Source: Candidatus Multivorans sp.
Lineage (GTDB): Bacteria; Acidobacteriota; Thermoanaerobaculia; Multivoradales; Multivoraceae
Length of the DNA: 64,000 nucleotides
Direction of reading: 5' to 3'
NCBI GenBank assembly: GCA_965224025.1
Contig: OZ245033.1
Span: forward strand, 1,120,001-1,184,000
Shown here: positions 2,736 to 62,063 of the stretch, piece after piece
How the letters are laid out: each line of letters begins with the position of its first letter
Position numbering within the stretch: position 1 is the first letter of the stretch
Translations under genes and position numbers: made by a program
The notes under the pieces: model-generated
The model's input: only the letters and a program-made list of their open reading frames with translations
Database searches by the model: none
Told to the model about the DNA's origin: nothing

Positions 2736-3791
2736 GTGAAGCGCGAGAGCCGGCGGGTGCGGGCGCTCGTGCTCTGCGCCGGGCGCGCCGAACGGCTGCG
2801 GCCGCTGAGCAGCTTCCTGGCCAAACCGCTGCTGCCGGTCGCCGGCCGGCCGGTGGCGATGCGCACGATCGACATCCTCCACCGCGCCGGCTGCGAGACG
2901 GCGGTCAACCTGCACCACTTGGCGGGCGCCGTGCGGCGTGGATTGGGGTCACAAACCGGTGAACGCGGAGTCGACCTCGCCTTCACCGTCGAGACGAACC
3001 TGCTGGGGACGCTGGGGGCGGTGGTCAACCTCCGGGACTTCCTGGCCGGGGGTGACGAGATCGTGTTGGTGAACGGCGACTCGCTCTGCCGCTGGCCGAT
3101 TCGCGACGTGCTTGCCCGGCACCGCCGGAGCGGCGCCGACGTCACGCTGCAGCTTGGCCGCGAAGCGCCGGACGAGCGCCTGGGCGGCGGCGTGGAAGTC
3201 GACCGCCGGGGGCTCGTCACGGGGCTCCGCGACCTGCGCGTCGGTTCGGTTCGCGGCCGCGGGCGCACTTTCCAGGGGCTGCACGTCCTGTCGCGCCGGG
3301 TCCTGGATGCGATTCCGTCACCTTTGGTCTCCAACGACATCGTGGAAGGTCTCTACCAGCCCCTGCTGCGGGCTGGGGCCCGGATCGTCGGTTTCGGCTG
3401 CCGCCGCCGCTGGCACGACCTCGGGACACCGCGCCGCTACCTGGATGGGGCTCTCGATTGGGGCCGCACCGCCGGCGGCCGCAAGCGGCGCCGGCGCTTC
3501 GTGTCGCCGGGAGTCGCCGTGGGCAGCGGCGCGGCCATCGAACACAGCGTGGTCGAGAGCGGCAGCCGTCTCGGCGCCGGTGCGCTGGTGGAGCACAGTC
3601 TGCTGATGCCGGACGCCCGGGTCGGCGCGGGGGCCCGGCTTCGCGACACGGTCGTTGGGCCGGGCGTTCAGGTGCCGCCGGGGCTTGAGGTCGACGGCGA
3701 GCTCTTGACGCCGGCGGATTGGGGGAGCGCCCCGGACACCCGCTCCGAAGAGCGGGATGGGCTCGTCTACACGGCGCTGGACCCGACCTAG
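2736..3791 (+). CDS. NDP-sugar synthase / nucleotidyltransferase (mannose-1-P guanylyltransferase-like) with C-terminal hexapeptide repeats
   Basis: ALVLCAGRAERLRPL...KPLLPV, NGD and WHDLGTP motifs. GTG start at 2736 chosen; an in-frame ATG at 2640 is an alternative. Confidence 0.82.
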   Translation: MKRESRRVRALVLCAGRAERLRPLSSFLAKPLLPVAGRPVAMRTIDILHRAGCETAVNLHHLAGAVRRGLGSQTGERGVDLAFTVETNLLGTLGAVVNLRDFLAGGDEIVLVNGDSLCRWPIRDVLARHRRSGADVTLQLGREAPDERLGGGVEVDRRGLVTGLRDLRVGSVRGRGRTFQGLHVLSRRVLDAIPSPLVSNDIVEGLYQPLLRAGARIVGFGCRRRWHDLGTPRRYLDGALDWGRTAGGRKRRRRFVSPGVAVGSGAAIEHSVVESGSRLGAGALVEHSLLMPDARVGAGARLRDTVVGPGVQVPPGLEVDGELLTPADWGSAPDTRSEERDGLVYTALDPT

Positions 3792-3794
3792 GAG

Positions 3795-3853
3795 GCGAGT
3801 CGCGGCGTCCGCGCCGCGTTGATGCAGAGGAAAGAGGGCGTGTTCCATGCAAG
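3795..3853 (+). mobile_element. 59-bp non-autonomous IS110-related mini element
   Basis: Flanked by ctagg-AG and AG-cttgcgcggcagaa; contains hairpin cgcggcg-tccg-cgccgcg and ends in tgttccatgcaAG, identical to the IS110 right end at 60282-60294. Confidence 0.8.
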
Positions 3854-39236: not shown

Positions 39237-41180
<1,944 letters not shown>

Positions 41181-41183
41181 GAG

Positions 41184-41330
41184 TCAGCGCTGCGTCCGCG
41201 CAGCGCTGACTTGCAGGGAACTGGTCGCCGACTGGGTGCGCGGGTCTTCTGACCCGCTGCCGCCGGAGGCGGCCAGAGATACGTGCCGGCCGTCAGGCCG
41301 GCTCCGCTTTGGCGGCCAGTTCCCTGCAAG
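41184..41330 (+). mobile_element. 147-bp IS110-related MITE
   Basis: ctagg-AG left junction; hairpin gtcagcgctgcg-tccg-cgcagcgctgac; 20-bp inverted repeat (41210-41229 vs 41311-41330, one mismatch); ends gttccctgcaAG followed by cctgcgcggcag. Confidence 0.82.
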
Positions 41331-55030: not shown

Positions 55031-57067
55031 CTACTCCGGCAGGCTGAACGCGACGTACTCGCCCCCCGAGGGCCCTCCCGTCCTACCGCCGCCCGCGGCG
55101 ATCACGACGTACTGCTTGCCGTCCACGCTGTAGACGGCCGGTGTCGCGTACGCCGCGGCCGACAGCTTGGTCTCCCACGGGATCTCGCCGTTCCGCGTGT
55201 CGTAGGCGCGGAACTTCTCGTCCGGCGTCGCGGCGATGAAGATGAGGCCGGAGGCCGTCACCACCGGGCCGCCGTAGTTCACGGCGCCGAAGCCGAGATC
55301 GGGGTGCGAGGGATAGTCGCCGAACGGCACCTTCCAGGCGATCTCGCCGGTCGAAAGATCGATCGAGTTCAGCGTGCCCCAGGGCGGGGAGTTGCCGGGC
55401 AGGTTCTCATGGTCGCGCAGGTAGACGTAGCCGCCGAGGACGTAGGCGACCTCGCCTCTGGGCTCGTCGACCTCGGGTTCGGGATCGAGGATGTACGCCT
55501 CGATGGCGCCGAGCTCGACCCGGTTGAGATGGTCGAAGCCCTCCATGCGGCCGCTGCCCTCGCGGACAATGCGGCGAATCTCGGCAAGCTCCATGCGATC
55601 GCCGACGCCGAGCAGGGGGGCCGCCATGTCGGTGCCCTCGAGTTTCAGCCCGTGACACCGGCCGCAGTGCCGCGCATAGGTGCCGTACCGGCTGAAGCCG
55701 ACGGGCACTTCGGTGAGATTCAGAATGCCGGCGACATCGTTCGCATTGACGATCAGATGGTTGGTGTTCGGGTCGAACGCCGAGCCGCCCCACTCGCCGC
55801 CGCCGTCGTACCACGGCATGAAGAGCACGGTGCCGACCTTGGGCGGCGCCCAGGGGCGCAGATCCCAGTCCTTGATCCGCTCCTCGACGAATTCGCGCGC
55901 CGCCGGGGTGCGGTTCGTGATCTCGACGTCCTGCCGACTGATGACCACGGCCGAAAGCGGCTGCGTCGGCGCCGTCACCTCGCCAGGGAGCGTGCTTGGA
56001 ATCGGCGTTTCGATCTCGTGGATGGGGTACATCGACTCGCCGGTCTCCCGGTCGAAGACGTAGAGCTGCCCCGTCTTCGTCGTGATGGCCACGGCATCGA
56101 TCGTCTGGCCGTCGCGTTCGAGCTGAACCAGGGTCGGCGGCGAGGGGTTGTCCTTGTCCCAGAGGTCGTGGCGGACGACCTGAAAGTGCCACGTCAGTTC
56201 GCCGGTGCGCGCGTCGACCGCCACCAGGGAGTCCGAGAACAGGTTGCCGCCCAGGCGGTTCGCGCCGTAGAAGTCGGGGGTCGCCGACCCGGTCGGCGCG
56301 AACAGGATGCCGCGCTCCTCGTCGAGCGCCATGCCGGACCAGACGTTGGCGCCGCCGGCCCGCTCGAGCGATCCTTCGGCCCAGGTCTCGGAACCGAAAT
56401 CGCCCGGCGCCGGAATGGTGTCGAACTGCCAGACCAGGCTGCCGTCCACCGCGCTGAAGGCCCGAATCGAACCTGGGTACGCGTTGGCGTCCTCGTTGGT
56501 TGAGAAGCCCAAGATCAGCTTGTCCTCGAAGACGACGCCGGGCACGGTGATGTAGATGCGACCGTCTCGGTCCACGTCGGGCGTGAGGTCGAGTCCGCCG
56601 CCGTCGCCGAAGCTCTCGACCGGCGTGCCGTCGTCTGCGTTGAGCGCGATCAGGTCCTTGCCGTGAGTGAAGAAGAGGCGCCTGTCGTCGCCCTTCTCCC
56701 ACCACATCAGTCCCCGCTGGGCGTTGCCCGGCAGGCCCAGGTCGGAGCGCCAGATCTCCTCGCCCGTGGCCGCGTTCAGGGCGAACGCCTCGAGCTGGGG
56801 CGACAGCGCGTAGAGCACCCCGTCGATGACCAGGGGGCTCGTGTACATCGTGGCGCCCGCTCCCCGGGGCTCGCCCGAGTCATAGACCCAGGCGACTTCG
56901 AGCTGGCTCACGTTGTCCCGGTTGATCTCGGTCAGCGGGCTGTAGTGCTGGCGGCCCGAGTCGCCGAGGTAGACGGGCCAGTCTTCATCGGTGGGACCGC
57001 AAGCAGTGATCAGAAACGCCACCACGAGGGGCGCGGCGCGGTTCGAGGCCGGTCGAGCGGATCGCAT
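55031..57067 (-). CDS. PQQ-dependent (glucose/quinate-type) dehydrogenase lipoprotein with internal c-type heme domain
   Basis: Lipobox ITAC; YSPL.EIN..NV..L..AW, GGANVWSG, HDLWD.D, CGRCH, PPWGTL and ATPAVY..DGKQY. Confidence 0.88.
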   Translation of the reverse strand: MRSARPASNRAAPLVVAFLITACGPTDEDWPVYLGDSGRQHYSPLTEINRDNVSQLEVAWVYDSGEPRGAGATMYTSPLVIDGVLYALSPQLEAFALNAATGEEIWRSDLGLPGNAQRGLMWWEKGDDRRLFFTHGKDLIALNADDGTPVESFGDGGGLDLTPDVDRDGRIYITVPGVVFEDKLILGFSTNEDANAYPGSIRAFSAVDGSLVWQFDTIPAPGDFGSETWAEGSLERAGGANVWSGMALDEERGILFAPTGSATPDFYGANRLGGNLFSDSLVAVDARTGELTWHFQVVRHDLWDKDNPSPPTLVQLERDGQTIDAVAITTKTGQLYVFDRETGESMYPIHEIETPIPSTLPGEVTAPTQPLSAVVISRQDVEITNRTPAAREFVEERIKDWDLRPWAPPKVGTVLFMPWYDGGGEWGGSAFDPNTNHLIVNANDVAGILNLTEVPVGFSRYGTYARHCGRCHGLKLEGTDMAAPLLGVGDRMELAEIRRIVREGSGRMEGFDHLNRVELGAIEAYILDPEPEVDEPRGEVAYVLGGYVYLRDHENLPGNSPPWGTLNSIDLSTGEIAWKVPFGDYPSHPDLGFGAVNYGGPVVTASGLIFIAATPDEKFRAYDTRNGEIPWETKLSAAAYATPAVYSVDGKQYVVIAAGGGRTGGPSGGEYVAFSLPE

Positions 57068-57169
57068 GGCGAGCAATCGTACTTGCTCGTCGGAGACTGC
57101 TTCTTCCTCGGAGTCGCGTGTATCCTGAGCGGTACAAGTCCAAACGCGGTTCGAAAGGGGAACGACCCG

Positions 57170-58639
57170 ATGAAGAGGCTCACCCTGTCATCCATGCGTC
57201 CGATGACGGACGCATGGACTGCTTCACGAGTGGCGCGGATCGCGCCACTCGGGTTCGTTTTCTCGAGCTTCCTGCTGGCGGCGACGGCTGCCGCGCAGGA
57301 GCCACCGAACATCGTCCTGCTGTTCGCCGACGACCTCGGCTACGGCGCCATCTCCGCTTACGGAGGCGCCGGGATCCCGACGCCGAACATCGACTCGCTC
57401 GGCGAGGACGGAGTGCGCTTCGTGTCCGGCTACATGACCGCGCCGGTCTGCAACCCGTCGCGCAACGGCCTGATCACCGGCCGCTACCAGCAGCGCTGGG
57501 GCAAGGAGCTGAACTCCCAGACCGTACCGCCGATCGGCGCTGCCAGGGGGACTCTCGGCATCCACCACCAAACGATCGGCGACGCGCTCCAGACCGCCGG
57601 CTACACGAACGCTGCGGTCGGCAAGTGGCAATTGGGGATGCGGCGGCTCCTCCACCCGCTCGACCGCGGCTTCGACTACTTCTACGGCATGCCGTCGGGC
57701 ATGAACTACGTCGACCCGAGCTGGCCCGGCGCTCACGCGCTGGAGATGAAGCCGGTCACCCGAGGAAGTCCGGACCGCATCGTCGCGATGTTCAAGGGCC
57801 GCGAGGAGGACGAGCTCAAGGAGTACCAGACCACCCAGCTCGCCCGCGAGGGAACCGACTTCATCGACCGCAACAAGGACAACCCCTTCTTCCTCTACCT
57901 CGCCTTCTACGCGGTGCATGCTCCGATGCAGGTGATGGACGAGCACTACCAGCGCTTCCCGGACTTCGACGACCAGTACCGGCGCGTGTACGCCGGCATG
58001 GTCAGCGCGCTGGACGACGCCGTCGGCATGGTCCTGGCCAAGCTCGAGGAACACGGTTTGGCCGACAACACGCTGGTCATCTTCACCGCCGACAACGGCG
58101 CCATGTCCACGCAGGACACCGAGCGGATTCACAACAGCCCGCTGATCGGCCACAAGCGGAACCTGTACGAGGGCGGCATCCGGGTGCCCTTCCTGATGCG
58201 CTTCCCCGGCCGCATTCCCGCGGGCACGGTCTACGAGCACCCGATCAGCTCGCTGGACATCTTCGCCACTTCGGTGAGCCTGGCGGCGGTGCCGGACGTG
58301 GAGCGCTACCAGCTCGACGGCGTCGATCTGTTGCCGTACCTCGCCGGCGAGCAGGAGGGCGCGCCGCACGAGTACCTGTTCTGGCGCTCGGGGCCGAACG
58401 CCGCGGTCCGCCACGGTTCCTGGAAGCTCCTGATGGCTGGAGGCCTGGAGCGGCTCTACGACGTCGACCGGGATTCGAGCGAATCAGAGGACCTGGCCGC
58501 CGCGAACCCGGATATCGTCGCGAAGCTGAAGGAGGCGTTCGCGCGCTGGAACGAGGAGATGGAGGACGGCCGGATGTCACCGCCCGCCCGGCGCGCGACG
58601 ACGACCTACAACGGCGACACCATCGAGTGGCACATCTAG
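57170..58639 (+). CDS. Secreted Cys-type arylsulfatase-family sulfatase
   Basis: Signal peptide; PNIVLLFADDLGYG, CNPSR (CxPxR), GKW, DNG and YEGGIRVP. Confidence 0.92.
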   Translation: MKRLTLSSMRPMTDAWTASRVARIAPLGFVFSSFLLAATAAAQEPPNIVLLFADDLGYGAISAYGGAGIPTPNIDSLGEDGVRFVSGYMTAPVCNPSRNGLITGRYQQRWGKELNSQTVPPIGAARGTLGIHHQTIGDALQTAGYTNAAVGKWQLGMRRLLHPLDRGFDYFYGMPSGMNYVDPSWPGAHALEMKPVTRGSPDRIVAMFKGREEDELKEYQTTQLAREGTDFIDRNKDNPFFLYLAFYAVHAPMQVMDEHYQRFPDFDDQYRRVYAGMVSALDDAVGMVLAKLEEHGLADNTLVIFTADNGAMSTQDTERIHNSPLIGHKRNLYEGGIRVPFLMRFPGRIPAGTVYEHPISSLDIFATSVSLAAVPDVERYQLDGVDLLPYLAGEQEGAPHEYLFWRSGPNAAVRHGSWKLLMAGGLERLYDVDRDSSESEDLAAANPDIVAKLKEAFARWNEEMEDGRMSPPARRATTTYNGDTIEWHI

Positions 58640-58731
58640 GAGTGTCCGCAGCGTTGTCGCTGCGCTGTCGCGCAGGGAACAGGCAGCGAGTAGCCAACGT
58701 TACAGCGGCGTCGTGGGTTCATAGAGTTGGC

Positions 58732-58887
58732 CGCGCTGGGCAGCGAGGCCGCGCAGGCACTGGTGTGTTGGCGCCCGACTAGGAGTTTGGCCCGGACCGT
58801 GATCGGCGCTCTGACGCTGGCGGCGCGGCTTGTGTCGCGACCCCGTATGCAAGATTGAGCTTTTCGCCGCGGTCTCTGCCCAGCGCG
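58732..58887 (+). ncRNA. Candidate IS110 bridge/seek RNA
   Basis: Long stem (58732-58753 with 58868-58887) enclosing ctaggagt (58779-58786, target-left plus core) and atgcaag (58847-58853, right end plus core). Confidence 0.65.
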
Positions 58888-58920
58888 ACGATTGGATTCC
58901 ACATCTACGGGAGGCAGGGG

Positions 58921-60240
58921 ATGGCAAAGCGGAAGGCGGAGCGTCTGGAAGTCGTTCACCCGGATTGCGCCGGTGTGGACGTAGGCAAGCGCAAGCACTA
59001 CGTGGCGGTGGCCCCGTCGCGTTTCGAGCGGCCGGTGCGCAATTTCTCGTCGTTCACGGAGGACCTCGAGGTGATGGCCTCGTGGCTTCAGGAGTGCGGC
59101 GTGCGTGAGGTGGCGCTGGAGTCGACGGGGGTGTACTGGATTCCGGTGTTCGAGGTGCTGGACCGGGCGGGGTTCGAGGTGCATCTGGTGAATCCTCGGG
59201 CGACCAAGCAGGTGAGTGGCCGCAAGAGTGACGTTCTGGACTGCCAGTGGATCCGGCAGTTGATGAGCTACGGGCTCCTGCGCGGTGCGTTTCGCGCGCC
59301 GGACGAGTTGTGTCCGCTGCGTTCGTACACGCGGCAGCGCGCCCAGTTGGTCCGCGACCGCAGCCGCGCGGTGCAGCACATCCAGAAGGCTCTGGTGCAG
59401 ATGAACGTGCAGTTGGACAACGTGCTGAGCGACATCATGGGCAAGACCGGCCAGTTGATCGTGCGCGCGATCGTCGCCGGCGAGCGCGACGGCGCGGCGC
59501 TGGCCCGTCACCGGGACGGTCGCTGCAAGGCTGGTCCGGCTGTGATCGCGGCGAGTTTGCAAGGCAACTGGCGAGACGAGCACCTGTTCGCTCTGGGCCA
59601 GGCGCTGGCCCGCTACGACATGCTGCAAGGCCAGATCGAGATGTGCGAGAAGCGCATCGACGCCGAGCTCGACGGCCTGGCCCAAGACGGCGTCGAGGAC
59701 GCGCCGCCGCCCGGTTCGAAGGCGCGCGAGCGCGCCCTGCGGAAGCGGCTGCATCGCATGCTCGGCGTGGACCTGGTCGCCATTCCGACGGTCGGCGTCG
59801 AAACCGCGCTGACCTTCGCCGCTGAGATCGGCCCGGACCTGTCCCGGTTTCCCTCGCAGGGCAACTTCTGCTCGTGGCTGTGTCTGGCTCCACCGACCAA
59901 CATCAGCGGCGACAAACGGCTGAACGGCCCTCCCGTGAAGCAGACCAACCGGGTCGGCCAGACGCTGCGCCAAGCCGCCACCACAGCCCGCAACAGCAAG
60001 ACCGCCATCGGAGCCTCTCACCGCCGGCGTCTCCAGCACATGGAGAAGGCGAAGGCCATCAAGGCCACCGCTCATCAACTCGGCCGACTGATCTACGCCA
60101 TGCTGACCCACGGCGAAGAGTACGTCGAGCGCGACCTCGCCGAAATGGAGGCCGTCCGACGCGAACGACAAATCAGAAACCTGCAGCGTCAGGCCCGCCG
60201 CCTGAATCTGGCTCTCGTGCCGACCGAACATGCCGCCTGA
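58921..60240 (+). CDS. IS110 family DEDD recombinase/transposase
   Basis: GVDVG, ALESTGVYW, KSDVLD, IPTVG, RFPS and PPTNISG; GGGAGG RBS upstream. Confidence 0.95.
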   Translation: MAKRKAERLEVVHPDCAGVDVGKRKHYVAVAPSRFERPVRNFSSFTEDLEVMASWLQECGVREVALESTGVYWIPVFEVLDRAGFEVHLVNPRATKQVSGRKSDVLDCQWIRQLMSYGLLRGAFRAPDELCPLRSYTRQRAQLVRDRSRAVQHIQKALVQMNVQLDNVLSDIMGKTGQLIVRAIVAGERDGAALARHRDGRCKAGPAVIAASLQGNWRDEHLFALGQALARYDMLQGQIEMCEKRIDAELDGLAQDGVEDAPPPGSKARERALRKRLHRMLGVDLVAIPTVGVETALTFAAEIGPDLSRFPSQGNFCSWLCLAPPTNISGDKRLNGPPVKQTNRVGQTLRQAATTARNSKTAIGASHRRRLQHMEKAKAIKATAHQLGRLIYAMLTHGEEYVERDLAEMEAVRRERQIRNLQRQARRLNLALVPTEHAA

Positions 60241-60294
60241 ATCGCGCAACCTGCGCTGCCAACAAGGAACCCCTACCCGTTTGTTCCATGCAAG

Positions 60295-60344
60295 TCTGCG
60301 CGGCAGAAACGCAACATGGTGAGTTCTGGCGCGCAGACTCCTGG
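60295..60344. repeat. Remainder of the palindromic (REP-like) IS110 target, including an unoccupied inverted copy
   Basis: tctgcgcggcagaa and ttctggcgcgcagactcctgg (reverse complement ccaggAGtctgcgcgccagaa). Confidence 0.75.
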
Positions 60345-60681
60345 CGAGGCTTCGCCTCAGACCGACGAGCATGTCCTTGCGGGCTACGCGAGCCGACGTA
60401 TCGATGCATGGCTCTGGCTGAAACTTGCCTCAACTGTAAAGACCACGCTCGTTCAAGGAGTCTAGTGAGGTGGGGGCTGGGGCCAAACACGGAGCTGCGA
60501 CGGGTTGGCGGCTCTAGCCCGCATGCCTCGCCGATCCTCTTGGTGTGGATCCTCGTTCGGCGGGGATAGACTTCAGTCCCTTGCCGGGGCTCTGCAGTGC
60601 CGTGAGATGGCCTGCCCTCGCTCCGTAAAGCGGACGCCTCCGACCGGAGACGTTCCCTGAAGCAGGGAGAACAAGATCGAG

Positions 60682-60804
60682 ATGACGACCCACGACACAA
60701 CCGCGGCGCTTGCCGGGCCCGGCGGCTTTGCCGACATCCGGGCGACCGGCAGCAGTGCCTGCATCGTCAACGCGCCGGACTTCAAGCCGCACGCCTTCTC
60801 CTGA
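60682..60804 (+). CDS. Possible 40-aa small protein or gene remnant
   Basis: MTTHDTTAALAGPGGFADIRATGSSACIVNAPDFKPHAFS; AGGGAG upstream and GC-rich third codon positions. Confidence 0.25.
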   Translation: MTTHDTTAALAGPGGFADIRATGSSACIVNAPDFKPHAFS

Positions 60805-60944
60805 TCGCGGGTGACTCCGGCGACACCGGCCGGAAGGCCGGCGTACCGGGAGCTGCGGCGCCGGCGTGCAGGGGGCGTATTGCTGCGGTTCGGAAGCCGC
60901 GGCGCCTAGCGCCTCCGGTAGAGTGAGCCGCTTAGGAGGCCACG

Positions 60945-62063
60945 TTGACCACAGAGAATTCCACACCGACGAACCGATCCGTTTGGGGCGTCCACGCGGC
61001 CGTCTACGCGGTCCTGCTTGCAGTCATCGCGTTCCTGGTCCTGCGCCCCGAGCCCGGGGCCTCGGCCCAGGAGGCGAGCGCTCAGGACCAGGCGGCCGCG
61101 CGGCTCGACGGCGTGGACATCGGCCACGGCGAGGCGCTTGATCGGGCGGCCGCGCAGTTGGACGAGTTGGAGCAGCAGCGCGTCCAGTGCGACCTGCAGG
61201 TCAACTCCGAGCGGCATGGCCTGATCGAGCGGACGCTCGAGGGGATCGTCCGCGACCGCCTGGTCATTGCTGCTGCCGGGGAGGCGGGTCTGGCGCCCGA
61301 GGTCTGGCGGGAGGCGGAGATGGAGCGTCTCCAGGCCGAGCTTTCGGACGAGGACATCGACGCCTTCTTCACCGAGAACGAGGGCCGCATCCGGGGTGAG
61401 CGGGAGGAACTCGAGCCTCAGGTCCGGGTGTACCTGGCCCAGCAGCGGTTCGTGGAGTTTCTCGAGGACGGGCACGAGATCGAGTATCTGGTCGAGCCGT
61501 ACCGTCTCTCGGTCGATCCCGCGACCGGGCCGGCACGAGGCGGGGCCGAGGCGCTGGTGACGATCGTGGAGTGGTCGGACTTCGAGTGCCCGTACTGCAA
61601 GCGGATCCTGCCGACCCTGGAACAGCTCTTCGAGGAGTACCCGACGGAGGTGCGCCTGGTGTTCCGTCACTTCCCGCTGCACGCGATCCATCCCAACGCC
61701 CAGGCCGCGGCCGAGGCCGCGGTGTGCGCCCAGGACCAGGGCGCCTTCTGGGCGCTGCACGACCTGATGTTCGAGGAGCAGGACACGCTTGGCGTGGACG
61801 ACCTGAAAGACAAGGCGGAGAGGGCCGGCCTCGACGCGGAGGCCTTCGCGGCTTGCATGGAGGCCGAGGACACGCCGGGTCGCGTGGAGGCCGACCGGCG
61901 GGCCGGGATCGAGGTCGGGGTCAACGGGACGCCGGCGCTGTTCGTGAACGGCCGGCCGCTCGCGGGGGCGGTCGCCTACGAAGAGTTGGCCGGGGTGGTC
62001 GAGGACGAGCTCGTTCGGACCGCGGCGGGAGGGCAGTCGTCGGACTCGGGGAAGGGGCTTTGA
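60945..62063 (+). CDS. Membrane-anchored DsbA/thioredoxin-fold disulfide oxidoreductase
   Basis: VTIVEWSDFECPYC, RHFPL..H and GVNGTP (cis-Pro loop); N-terminal TM helix. Confidence 0.9.
   Translation: MTTENSTPTNRSVWGVHAAVYAVLLAVIAFLVLRPEPGASAQEASAQDQAAARLDGVDIGHGEALDRAAAQLDELEQQRVQCDLQVNSERHGLIERTLEGIVRDRLVIAAAGEAGLAPEVWREAEMERLQAELSDEDIDAFFTENEGRIRGEREELEPQVRVYLAQQRFVEFLEDGHEIEYLVEPYRLSVDPATGPARGGAEALVTIVEWSDFECPYCKRILPTLEQLFEEYPTEVRLVFRHFPLHAIHPNAQAAAEAAVCAQDQGAFWALHDLMFEEQDTLGVDDLKDKAERAGLDAEAFAACMEAEDTPGRVEADRRAGIEVGVNGTPALFVNGRPLAGAVAYEELAGVVEDELVRTAAGGQSSDSGKGL

Follow-up and report, generated by a model that had tools for sequence, protein, structure and literature searches.

The question raised by this locus is whether the non-coding DNA in front of a transposase gene encodes an RNA that directs where the element inserts. 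In this study, a stretch of 64,000 nucleotides (nt) from Candidatus Multivorans sp. (contig OZ245033.1, positions 1,120,001 to 1,184,000; here called the window) was analyzed. It contains an IS110-family insertion sequence (IS) at positions 58643-60294 of the + strand, 1652 base pairs (bp) long when the right-hand AG is counted as the element's. A first-pass annotation had proposed that the region upstream of the transposase gene is a bridge RNA carrying both a target guide and a donor guide. The analysis supported this proposal. The leader at about 58729-58890 (+) very probably encodes a bridge RNA that programs the element's 439-amino-acid (aa) DEDD recombinase. This reading was adopted because the structure of the leader RNA covaries and because, among about 100 homologs, the 7-mers at two places in its loops covary as well, one with the left flank and the other with the right end.

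Guides, core and limits of the element

The genome contained 14 copies of the element at 99–100% identity with identical limits, and the DNA search gave one further copy at 84%. When the ends of the copies were lined up, similarity began directly after CTAGGAG on the left and stopped at ...TTCCATGCAAG on the right. CTAGGAG stood left of the element in 14 of 14 copies, with unrelated sequence beyond it; the right flanks were variable. The same core dinucleotide was found in the target, the donor and both loops of the leader. Because AG was present at both junctions of the 14 copies, the element was defined as 58643-60294 with an AG core. The junctions and the guides that match them were as follows.

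58636..58642, +: left target flank CTAGG plus core AG, the same in all 14 copies
60288..60294, +: right end ATGCA plus core AG, from the end alignment of the copies
60295..60306, +: right target flank TCTGCGCGGCAG, part of a palindrome like the repetitive extragenic palindromic (REP) sequences
58779..58785, +: 3'-side target guide CTAGGAG, the same sequence as left flank and core
58847..58853, +: 3'-side donor guide ATGCAAG, identical to the element right end plus core

The strings on which the first-pass annotation relied were all in place: the stem arms cgcgctgggcagcgaggccgcg (58732-58753) and cgcggtctctgcccagcgcg (58868-58887); ctaggagt at 58779-58786, repeated at the left junction (58636-58643); and atgcaag at 58847-58853, 68 nt further on, and again at 60288-60294. 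The annotation had read ctaggagt as left flank plus core. This held for CTAGGAG; the trailing t copies element base 1, not target or core.

Relatives were collected in two sets. In species genomes, a protein-guided scan identified 59 loci (44–86% identity), mostly in gammaproteobacterial metagenome-assembled genomes. Metagenome contigs scanned with a 10-protein alignment (A2) gave 80 more loci at 44–63%. A covariance model, R1, was built from the structure reported below. The alignment A4 consisted of 103 model-aligned rows, with 100 sources searched; near-duplicates (L032, L059, L061, and L076) and weak matches (L111, L147, L159, and L171) were kept outside it. The guide tests were run on 100 of the 103 rows, leaving aside L156, which matched on the minus strand, and the second match in each of L055 and L138.

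There were 63 distinct target 7-mers and 30 distinct donor 7-mers across the rows. For the target loop, 73 of 100 rows had an exact copy of their 7-mer within the 260 nt preceding the RNA in the same row; at least 150 nt of this upstream sequence was present in 84 of the 100. When guides were swapped between rows, the mean was 1.8 and the maximum 7 in 1000 trials. The donor-loop 7-mer was present, exactly, just downstream of the row's own transposase in 82 of the 89 rows with an open reading frame (ORF) longer than 900 nt; with swapped guides, the mean was 0.9 and the maximum 5 (1000 trials). A covariance model of homologous IS110 leaders and a test of guide-target covariation, both suggested in the first-pass annotation, were thus carried out, and covariation was found. 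It was observed directly in this analysis, as were the flanks of the copies. The 7-mers alone were not rare: CTAGGAG occurred 4 times in the 64-kb window (3.15 expected) and ATGCAAG 5 times (2.98 expected).

The core was AG in both loops of 96 of the 100 rows, in agreement with the AG core first proposed, and AA in both loops of the same 4 remaining rows. The A was constant (100/100).

The protein encoded by the element was compared with known families.

58921..60240, +: transposase (bridge recombinase) gene, 439 aa

Its Pfam matches were PF01548 (88.2 bits, 6.2e-25) and PF02371 (44 bits, 3e-11). It matched NCBIfam NF033542, 'IS110 family RNA-guided transposase', with 267.8 bits against a cut-off of 140 (E 1.3e-79), so its family was a direct result of the search. 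In 10 homologs, D20, D104, S329, and G330 were invariant, and E67 and D107 were nearly so. As judged from its sequence, the protein is an IS110-family DEDD transposase with an N-terminal RuvC-like domain and a C-terminal Tnp domain carrying the SG motif. The protein of IS621, the element from which the mechanism of bridge recombinases is mostly known, has about 326 aa, compared with 439 aa here.

Fold of the leader RNA

The fold was determined from alignment A1, which consisted of 34 leaders. It was made from 41 unique leaders, 7 of which were dropped as truncated or rearranged (L054, L077, L084, L092, L069, L052, and L062). The homolog leaders aligned well. RNAalifold on the 34 leaders gave an outer stem, a helix AGGCC/GGCC, two hairpins UGG...CCG, and a GGCG/CGCC helix. 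P1, P5, P2, P3, and part of P4 were thereby found unaided; the helix GACCG/CGGUC was added by eye. The parts of the RNA in the window were as follows.

58729..58890, +: bridge RNA (inferred transcript), bounded by P1; R1 match
58730..58741, +: P1 5' strand, pairing with 58878-58889
58747..58750, +: P5 5' strand GGCC, pairing with 58789-58792 and closing the target-binding loop
58751..58758, +: 5'-side target guide GCGCAGG plus a conserved C, complementing the top strand of core G and right flank (consensus CCTGCGC)
58761..58777, +: P2 hairpin between the two target guides
58795..58808, +: P4 5' strand (GACCG, bulge TGAT, CGGCG), pairing with CGCCGCGGTC at 58865-58874 and closing the donor-binding loop
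58818..58845, +: P3 hairpin just 5' of the donor guide

The structure was 90.4% paired on A1, with changes on both sides in 27 of 43 pairs. All 500 shuffles fell short of it on each of five measures, and pairing dropped to 36–44% when the partners were shifted by 1–3 columns. Compensatory changes were found in 10 of the 12 pairs of P1 on A1 and in 12 of 12 on A4. P5 was paired at 99.3% on A1 and 99.8% on A4, with compensatory changes. P4 had compensatory changes in 4/5 plus 1/5 pairs on A1 and in 5/5 plus 5/5 on A4. P2 was 97% paired on A1 and P3 94.4%; one P3 pair was G-C in 21 and A-U in 13 of the 34 sequences and broken in none. The fold was, like the covariation of the guides, a finding of this analysis. 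The pairs at the base of P2 and P3 are invariant U-G pairs, so the fold fits the + strand only.

Inside P1, the RNA consisted of two similar modules, each with a closing helix, a 5' strand, a UGG...CCG hairpin and, after a single linker base, a 3' strand whose last two bases are AG. CTAGGAG and ATGCAAG held equivalent places in them, one base past the CCG that ends P2 and P3. By eye, the donor loop may be closed by one more helix, GACG/CGUC in relatives and GCUC/GAGC in this leader.

R1 gave 150.2 bits at the window leader. It had 16 matches in the element's own genome: 14 were the copies, each with 150.2 bits, one was a sister leader, and one was a rearranged fragment. Of the 80 metagenome loci, 74 had an R1 match upstream of the transposase gene on the same strand, and the six loci without a match had 163 nt or less of upstream sequence. 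R1 had no match in L081, L063, L078, and L079.

The first-pass annotation had drawn a different fold, with a stem of about 20 bp (58732-53/58868-87), a target loop held by a ggcgcc/ggcgct stem, and, as a guess, a right target guide near tgat. These pairings are present in the window sequence, and the minimum-energy fold uses the long stem; GAGGCC/GGTCTC is conserved in close relatives, and pairs 17-21 with 177-181 are mostly kept. One stem does enclose both loops, as had been claimed, and this stem, P1, covaries. Its outer 12 pairs are perfect and covarying. The inner part, GAGGCCGCG/CGCGGTCTC, lies past a 2-nt asymmetry and had almost no compensatory change in the 34 homologs, with 15–22 of the 34 sequences unpaired at columns 22-26. 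By a second measure, the arms of the long stem were 58732-46/58873-87 (15 nt, 93%). The stem of ggcgcc (58770-75) and ggcgct (58805-10) can form here, but it too had almost no compensatory change in the 34 homologs, of which 13–16 were unpaired. This stem and the inner extension compete with the covarying helices 58747-50/58789-92 and 58795-99,58804-08/58865-74, and their bases belong to P5, P4, and P2. The tgat at 58800-03 is a conserved bulge of P4 without relation to the flanks, and the guide was placed at 58751-58758 instead. The fold exactly as first drawn is extremely unlikely, and the five-helix structure was used.

The 5' strand of the target loop was 10 nt long in 90 of 103 rows, with a near-invariant end C-A-N; in the window it is GCGCAGG-C-A-C (58751-58760). 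Positions 2–7 of the right flanks of the 14 copies fitted GCGCAGG in 13, 12, 13, 13, 11, and 12 copies, wobble counted. The longest run of complementarity averaged 4.54 in the 56 homologs whose right junction had been placed, compared with 3.89 after permutation (standard deviation 0.13, maximum 4.30, 500 permutations). In the recurring register, the conserved C faced the core G, and this C-G was paired in 96% of the 56 rows. Right-flank positions 1–3 were paired at 0.61, 0.59, and 0.62, compared with 0.44, 0.40, and 0.36 after permutation (z 2.8–4.5). In the AA-core metagenome homologs (L145, L152, L158, and L160), the 5' target strand ended in U-U, not C-A.

The bases after the target core were compared with the element ends. 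In IS621, a loop consists of a stem, a left guide (on the 5' side, copying the top strand and ending in CU), a stem loop, a right guide (on the 3' side, ending in AG), and a handshake guide (PMC11208160, PMC11208158). The IS621 handshake guides are the two bases past the core-binding end of the right target guide (RTG), and they pair with the donor after strand exchange. The corresponding feature in the window was the following.

58786..58787, +: handshake position(s); T58786 equals element base 1 (58643), and the second base is mismatched in the window copy

The base after the target core equalled element base 1 in 93% of the 71 rows with a placed left junction (46% expected, z 9.8), and the next base equalled element base 2 in 55% of them (29% expected, z 5.0). 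For the donor loop, none of the columns ranking highest for identity with the right flank was of this kind. The column-by-position matrices had scattered z values of 3–5 in many unrelated columns, which were read as shared ancestry, and the handshake signal alone was used.

The 5' strand of the donor loop was just 4 nt long in 23 of 103 rows. Six of its registers were compared with the left end for a second donor guide, and none was above permutation except for a weak base 1 (0.34, z 3.3). Two candidates for this guide in the window were rejected, cgccgcggtctct (58865-77; 10 of 13 complementary to the left end) and gcuggcgg (58816-23). Their bases lie in covarying helices, P4 and P3 respectively.

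The region just 5' of P1 (58700-58728) contained a weak sigma-70-like pair, GTTACA and TAGAGT, 17 nt apart (8 of 12, below the scan threshold). In the leader alignment, relatives had TATAAA or TGTAAG at this place, TATAAA and TAGAGT being -10-like. The RNA may have its own promoter inside the left end, as with ISPpu9. The sole terminator-like site in the terminator scan was on the minus strand, inside the gene.

Several points weigh against the bridge-RNA reading. An Rfam scan of 58000-61000 with E up to 10 gave 4 matches far below threshold (best E 0.57). Single-sequence folding energy was no better than that of shuffles (z 0.52 and -1.16). The promoter scan gave no sigma-70-like site above threshold, and none of the sequencing runs listed as holding the sequence was recorded as RNA. 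The homolog rows are related by descent. The structure was 91.8% paired on A4, with 39 of 43 pairs compensated, and A4 was fitted to the model, which favors the structure. The junctions of homologs were placed by guide match and the flank and handshake tests inherit these placements; the permutation covers the guide test. Pairing of the 5'-side target guide was partial, at about 0.6 in flank positions 1–3, and faded beyond position 3, and most insertion sites in the own genome are copies of one repeat and hence not independent. The AA rows look like a natural core change with matching RNA changes, possibly in one lineage or by a single event. No second donor guide was found, unlike in IS621, so that the guides found account for only part of donor recognition. 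Since the 7-mers are not rare, the single fold equals shuffles, and there is no Rfam family, the case rests on the comparison of homologs.

Polarity, target sites and retargeting

The first-pass annotation had described left guides that copy the top strand. The two guides do copy the left flank and the right end, but they are on the 3' side of the loops, in the place of the right guides of IS621. The AG-ending guides on the 3' side and the handshake after the target guide are like the IS621 right guides; the RNA therefore corresponds to that of IS621 with AG read as CT on the opposite strand. From this we infer that the element is inverted relative to the core, compared with IS621. The core variation mirrors that of IS621 with the strands swapped: the constant A corresponds to the near-invariant T of IS621 and the variable G to its variable C.

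Alternatively, the AG-ending guides could be true counterparts of the IS621 left guides, with the modules circularly permuted, the IS621 polarity kept, and a genuinely different AG core. In the element frame, both guides are top-strand copies, one of the left flank and one of the right end, like the left target and left donor guides (LTG, LDG) of IS621, and they are longer and better matched than their partners, as IS621 left guides are. However, they are on the 3' side and end in AG, and a target guide followed by bases matching the non-cognate DNA is the signature of the IS621 RTG and handshake. A constant A and a variable G also mirror the IS621 T and C with the strands swapped, and both guide orders have been reported among families (PMC11187229). 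Circular permutation is thus considered unlikely, and the inverted polarity is preferred.

Transcription, processing and binding of the RNA and the chemistry of the reaction are inferred in the following scheme. The target 3' strand CUAGG-AG, a copy of left flank and core, would pair with the bottom strand, and the target 5' strand GCGCAGG-C would base-pair with core G and right flank on the top strand. In the donor loop, the 3' strand AUGCA-AG would serve as the copy of right end and core, and the left end would present a DNA hairpin instead of an RNA partner. By analogy with IS621 and ISPpu9, the element would excise as a circle joining ...ATGCA-AG-TGTCC... The RNA would bridge this circle joint and a REP-like site CTAGG-AG-YYTGCGC, often starting at a stop codon, and recombination would take place at AG.

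The target and the ends of the element had the following further features.

56663..58639: upstream ORF, whose stop codon is the TAG at 58637-39, inside CTAGGAG
58647..58664: left-end hairpin CGCAGCG-TTGT-CGCTGCG, read from the sequence
58672..58680: subterminal inverted repeat, left copy GCAGGGAAC; its partner GTTCCATGC at 60283-60291 is 8/9 complementary (by eye)

The non-coding ends are 278 nt (left) and 54 nt (right) long. The subterminal repeat is 9 bp long, its copies being set in by 29 nt on the left and 3 nt on the right. The left-end hairpin was kept in relatives with differing sequences, as seen by eye, and it recalls the A-box palindrome of ISPpu9.

The predicted empty site, with the flanks joined (CTAGGAGYYTGCGCGGCAG), had 51 occurrences in the genome at up to 2 mismatches, whereas the reversed control had 7, which makes the target a REP-like repeat. 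The stretch 60295-60344 has an imperfect palindrome (TCTGCGCGGCAGAA...TTCTGGCGCGCAGA) and then CTCCTGG, which reads CCAGGAG on the opposite strand; every repeat unit thus has a second near-target there, listed at 2 mismatches. At the three insertion sites of the window, the TAG within CTAGGAG was the stop codon of a long upstream ORF (3789-3791, 41178-41180, and 58637-58639; ORFs of 592, 931, and 658 aa). At these sites, the target repeat begins at the gene end, and the element lands 3 nt past the stop codon.

Two of these sites were occupied by mini-elements, 3788-3853 (59 bp) and 41177-41330 (147 bp), with ends TTCCATGCAAG and TTCCCTGCAAG. Both retain the hairpin of the left end and the subterminal repeat but lack the gene, and so resemble non-autonomous relatives open to mobilization in trans by the IS. 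A pattern scan of the own genome gave 12 such mini-elements of 54–299 bp.

The target loop was also found to match element right ends. The sister leader C1:909107-909269 and the leaders L031, L032, and L050 had ATGCAAG in the target loop, and each of them comes immediately after ...TTCCATGCAAG from a mini-element or a sibling. In 14 of the 100 rows, the target 7-mer equalled the donor 7-mer of some row. L055:1289-3325 contained two head-to-tail copies, 1881 nt apart, with a target guide equal to their own donor guide ATGAAAG; L055 thus aims at its own right end and builds tandem arrays.

The sister element, with a transposase 84% identical, was split between C1:908850-909400 (L090) and C1:2129000-2131000 (L091). 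Its leader ended at ...CATTTGAATGGGGATTATA near 909,300, and its gene near 2,130,500 was preceded by TATAATCCCCATTTGAAT. The split is suggestive of insertion of another IS in the sister leader, followed by an inversion of about 1.2 Mb between two copies of that IS.

The DNA encoding the target guide is itself a half-site. In L084:1291-1476, a mini-element was inserted in guide-coding DNA (CTAGG|AG-TTTGG). The right flank of a full copy started in guide-coding DNA in L042, and in L077:1292-1477 the leader was cut off there. At C1:4134162-4134335 (L092), the right end ...TTCCATGCAAG was fused to the DNA following the target guide of a sister-type leader, the product expected of recombination between an element end and the guide-coding half-site. 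The RNA gene thus seems to be self-targeted repeatedly.

These insertions or recombination events at L084, L042, L077, and C1:4134162-4134335 would also be consistent with another explanation, in which the leader is a structured 5' untranslated region (UTR) controlling translation and CTAGGAG and ATGCAAG are DNA sites for transposase binding or recombination. A 5' UTR that inhibits translation has been reported for ISPpu9. In the covarying fold, however, the 7-mers are single-stranded and stand directly after hairpins with invariant U-G pairs, and toward the other flank the 5'-side strand is a complement and not a copy, which is what an RNA pairing with both strands should show. Relatives of the protein family have been shown to use such RNAs, and translation control would be compatible with a guide role. 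The UTR explanation in place of a guide role is very unlikely, and the leader is read below as a bridge RNA.

A broader view of this clade of large transposases, ISPpu9-like and with an AG core, is plausible though somewhat doubtful. In such a clade, the polarity of the bridge RNA would be inverted, and the donor would be read by one guide and a DNA hairpin. The target loop would be freely retargeted, about 1 element in 7 aiming at a sibling right end and building tandem or nested arrays, and the RNA gene would be a recurrent site of recombination.

Bridge recombinases are under development as programmable DNA insertion tools, and their mechanism is known mostly from IS621 and a few kin. The leader RNA is very probably a real bridge RNA; RNA-guided DNA insertion is an already known system, and the layout here is unusual, with a long specific guide on the 3' side and a donor loop with seemingly one guide. 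The clade supplies about 100 natural triplets of RNA, target, and donor, in which the diversity of 7-mers shows the programmable positions. If confirmed, the layout would widen the design space and point to recognition of one donor arm by protein or DNA structure. The bridge RNA also accounts for three features of the genome: the placing of 14 IS copies and 12 mini-elements in a REP-like repeat, immediately past stop codons, the head-to-tail pile-up of related elements, and the leader DNA as a rearrangement hot spot.

Comparison with known systems

The element was compared with IS621 (Durrant et al. 2024, PMC11208160; Hiraizumi et al. 2024, PMC11208158). Both have a DEDD and Tnp recombinase, an RNA in the left end upstream of the gene, and two pseudo-symmetric loops, for target and donor respectively. 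In both, guides pair with opposite strands around a shared 2-nt core, a handshake follows the AG-ending target guide, and the target is REP-like. Unlike in IS621, the core is AG in the element frame here, compared with CT, and the guide for the left flank is on the 3' side, compared with the 5' side. The IS621-type guide order was absent from the element frame and appeared only when the core was read as CT on the other strand. P1 encloses both loops here without a separate 5' stem-loop, and a second donor guide, present in IS621, was not detected.

The IS1111-type seekRNAs of ISEc11 and ISPa11 (Siddiquee et al. 2024, PMC11187229) were similar in that the complement of the top strand precedes the match to the top strand and in having subterminal inverted repeats; ISPa11 also targets REP. 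The example of an IS110-type seekRNA in that paper had the reverse order of the IS1111 type. In the IS1111 group, however, the RNA is downstream of the transposase gene, whereas here it is upstream, as in the IS110 type. Their repeats are 11–13 bp long and 7 and 3 bp from the ends, compared with 9 bp, 29 nt and 3 nt here, and their transposases have 330–350 aa, compared with 439 aa. The element was therefore not assigned to the IS1111 group.

The search of the literature gave no paper combining 'AG core' with 'bridge RNA' or 'IS110', the supplementary box tables lying outside the search; the ISPpu9 paper uses the term 'AG dinucleotide'. ISPpu10 (bioRxiv 10.64898/2026.03.19.712850) is an IS110 element with a REP target, in which the target stem-loop adds to base pairing. 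It mobilizes left end-cargo-right end (LE-cargo-RE) substrates in trans. Unlike the element here, it has a CT core, and its guides were mapped by IS621 logic.

The closest described element was ISPpu9 of Pseudomonas putida KT2440 (Pares-Guillen et al. 2025, PMC12288879), which was compared by description only. ISPpu9 also belongs to the IS110 group, recombines at an AG dinucleotide at both ends, and inserts in REP. Its left end carries an A-box palindrome resembling one in the target. Asr9 and Ssr9 small RNAs and a promoter inside the left end have been reported for it (PMC12288879). Its long structured leader is presumed to hold the bridge RNA, the guide loops being unmapped in the available passages of that paper. 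Short non-autonomous ssr9 modules with the same end boxes occur in tandem with ISPpu9, as the mini-elements do with the IS described here.

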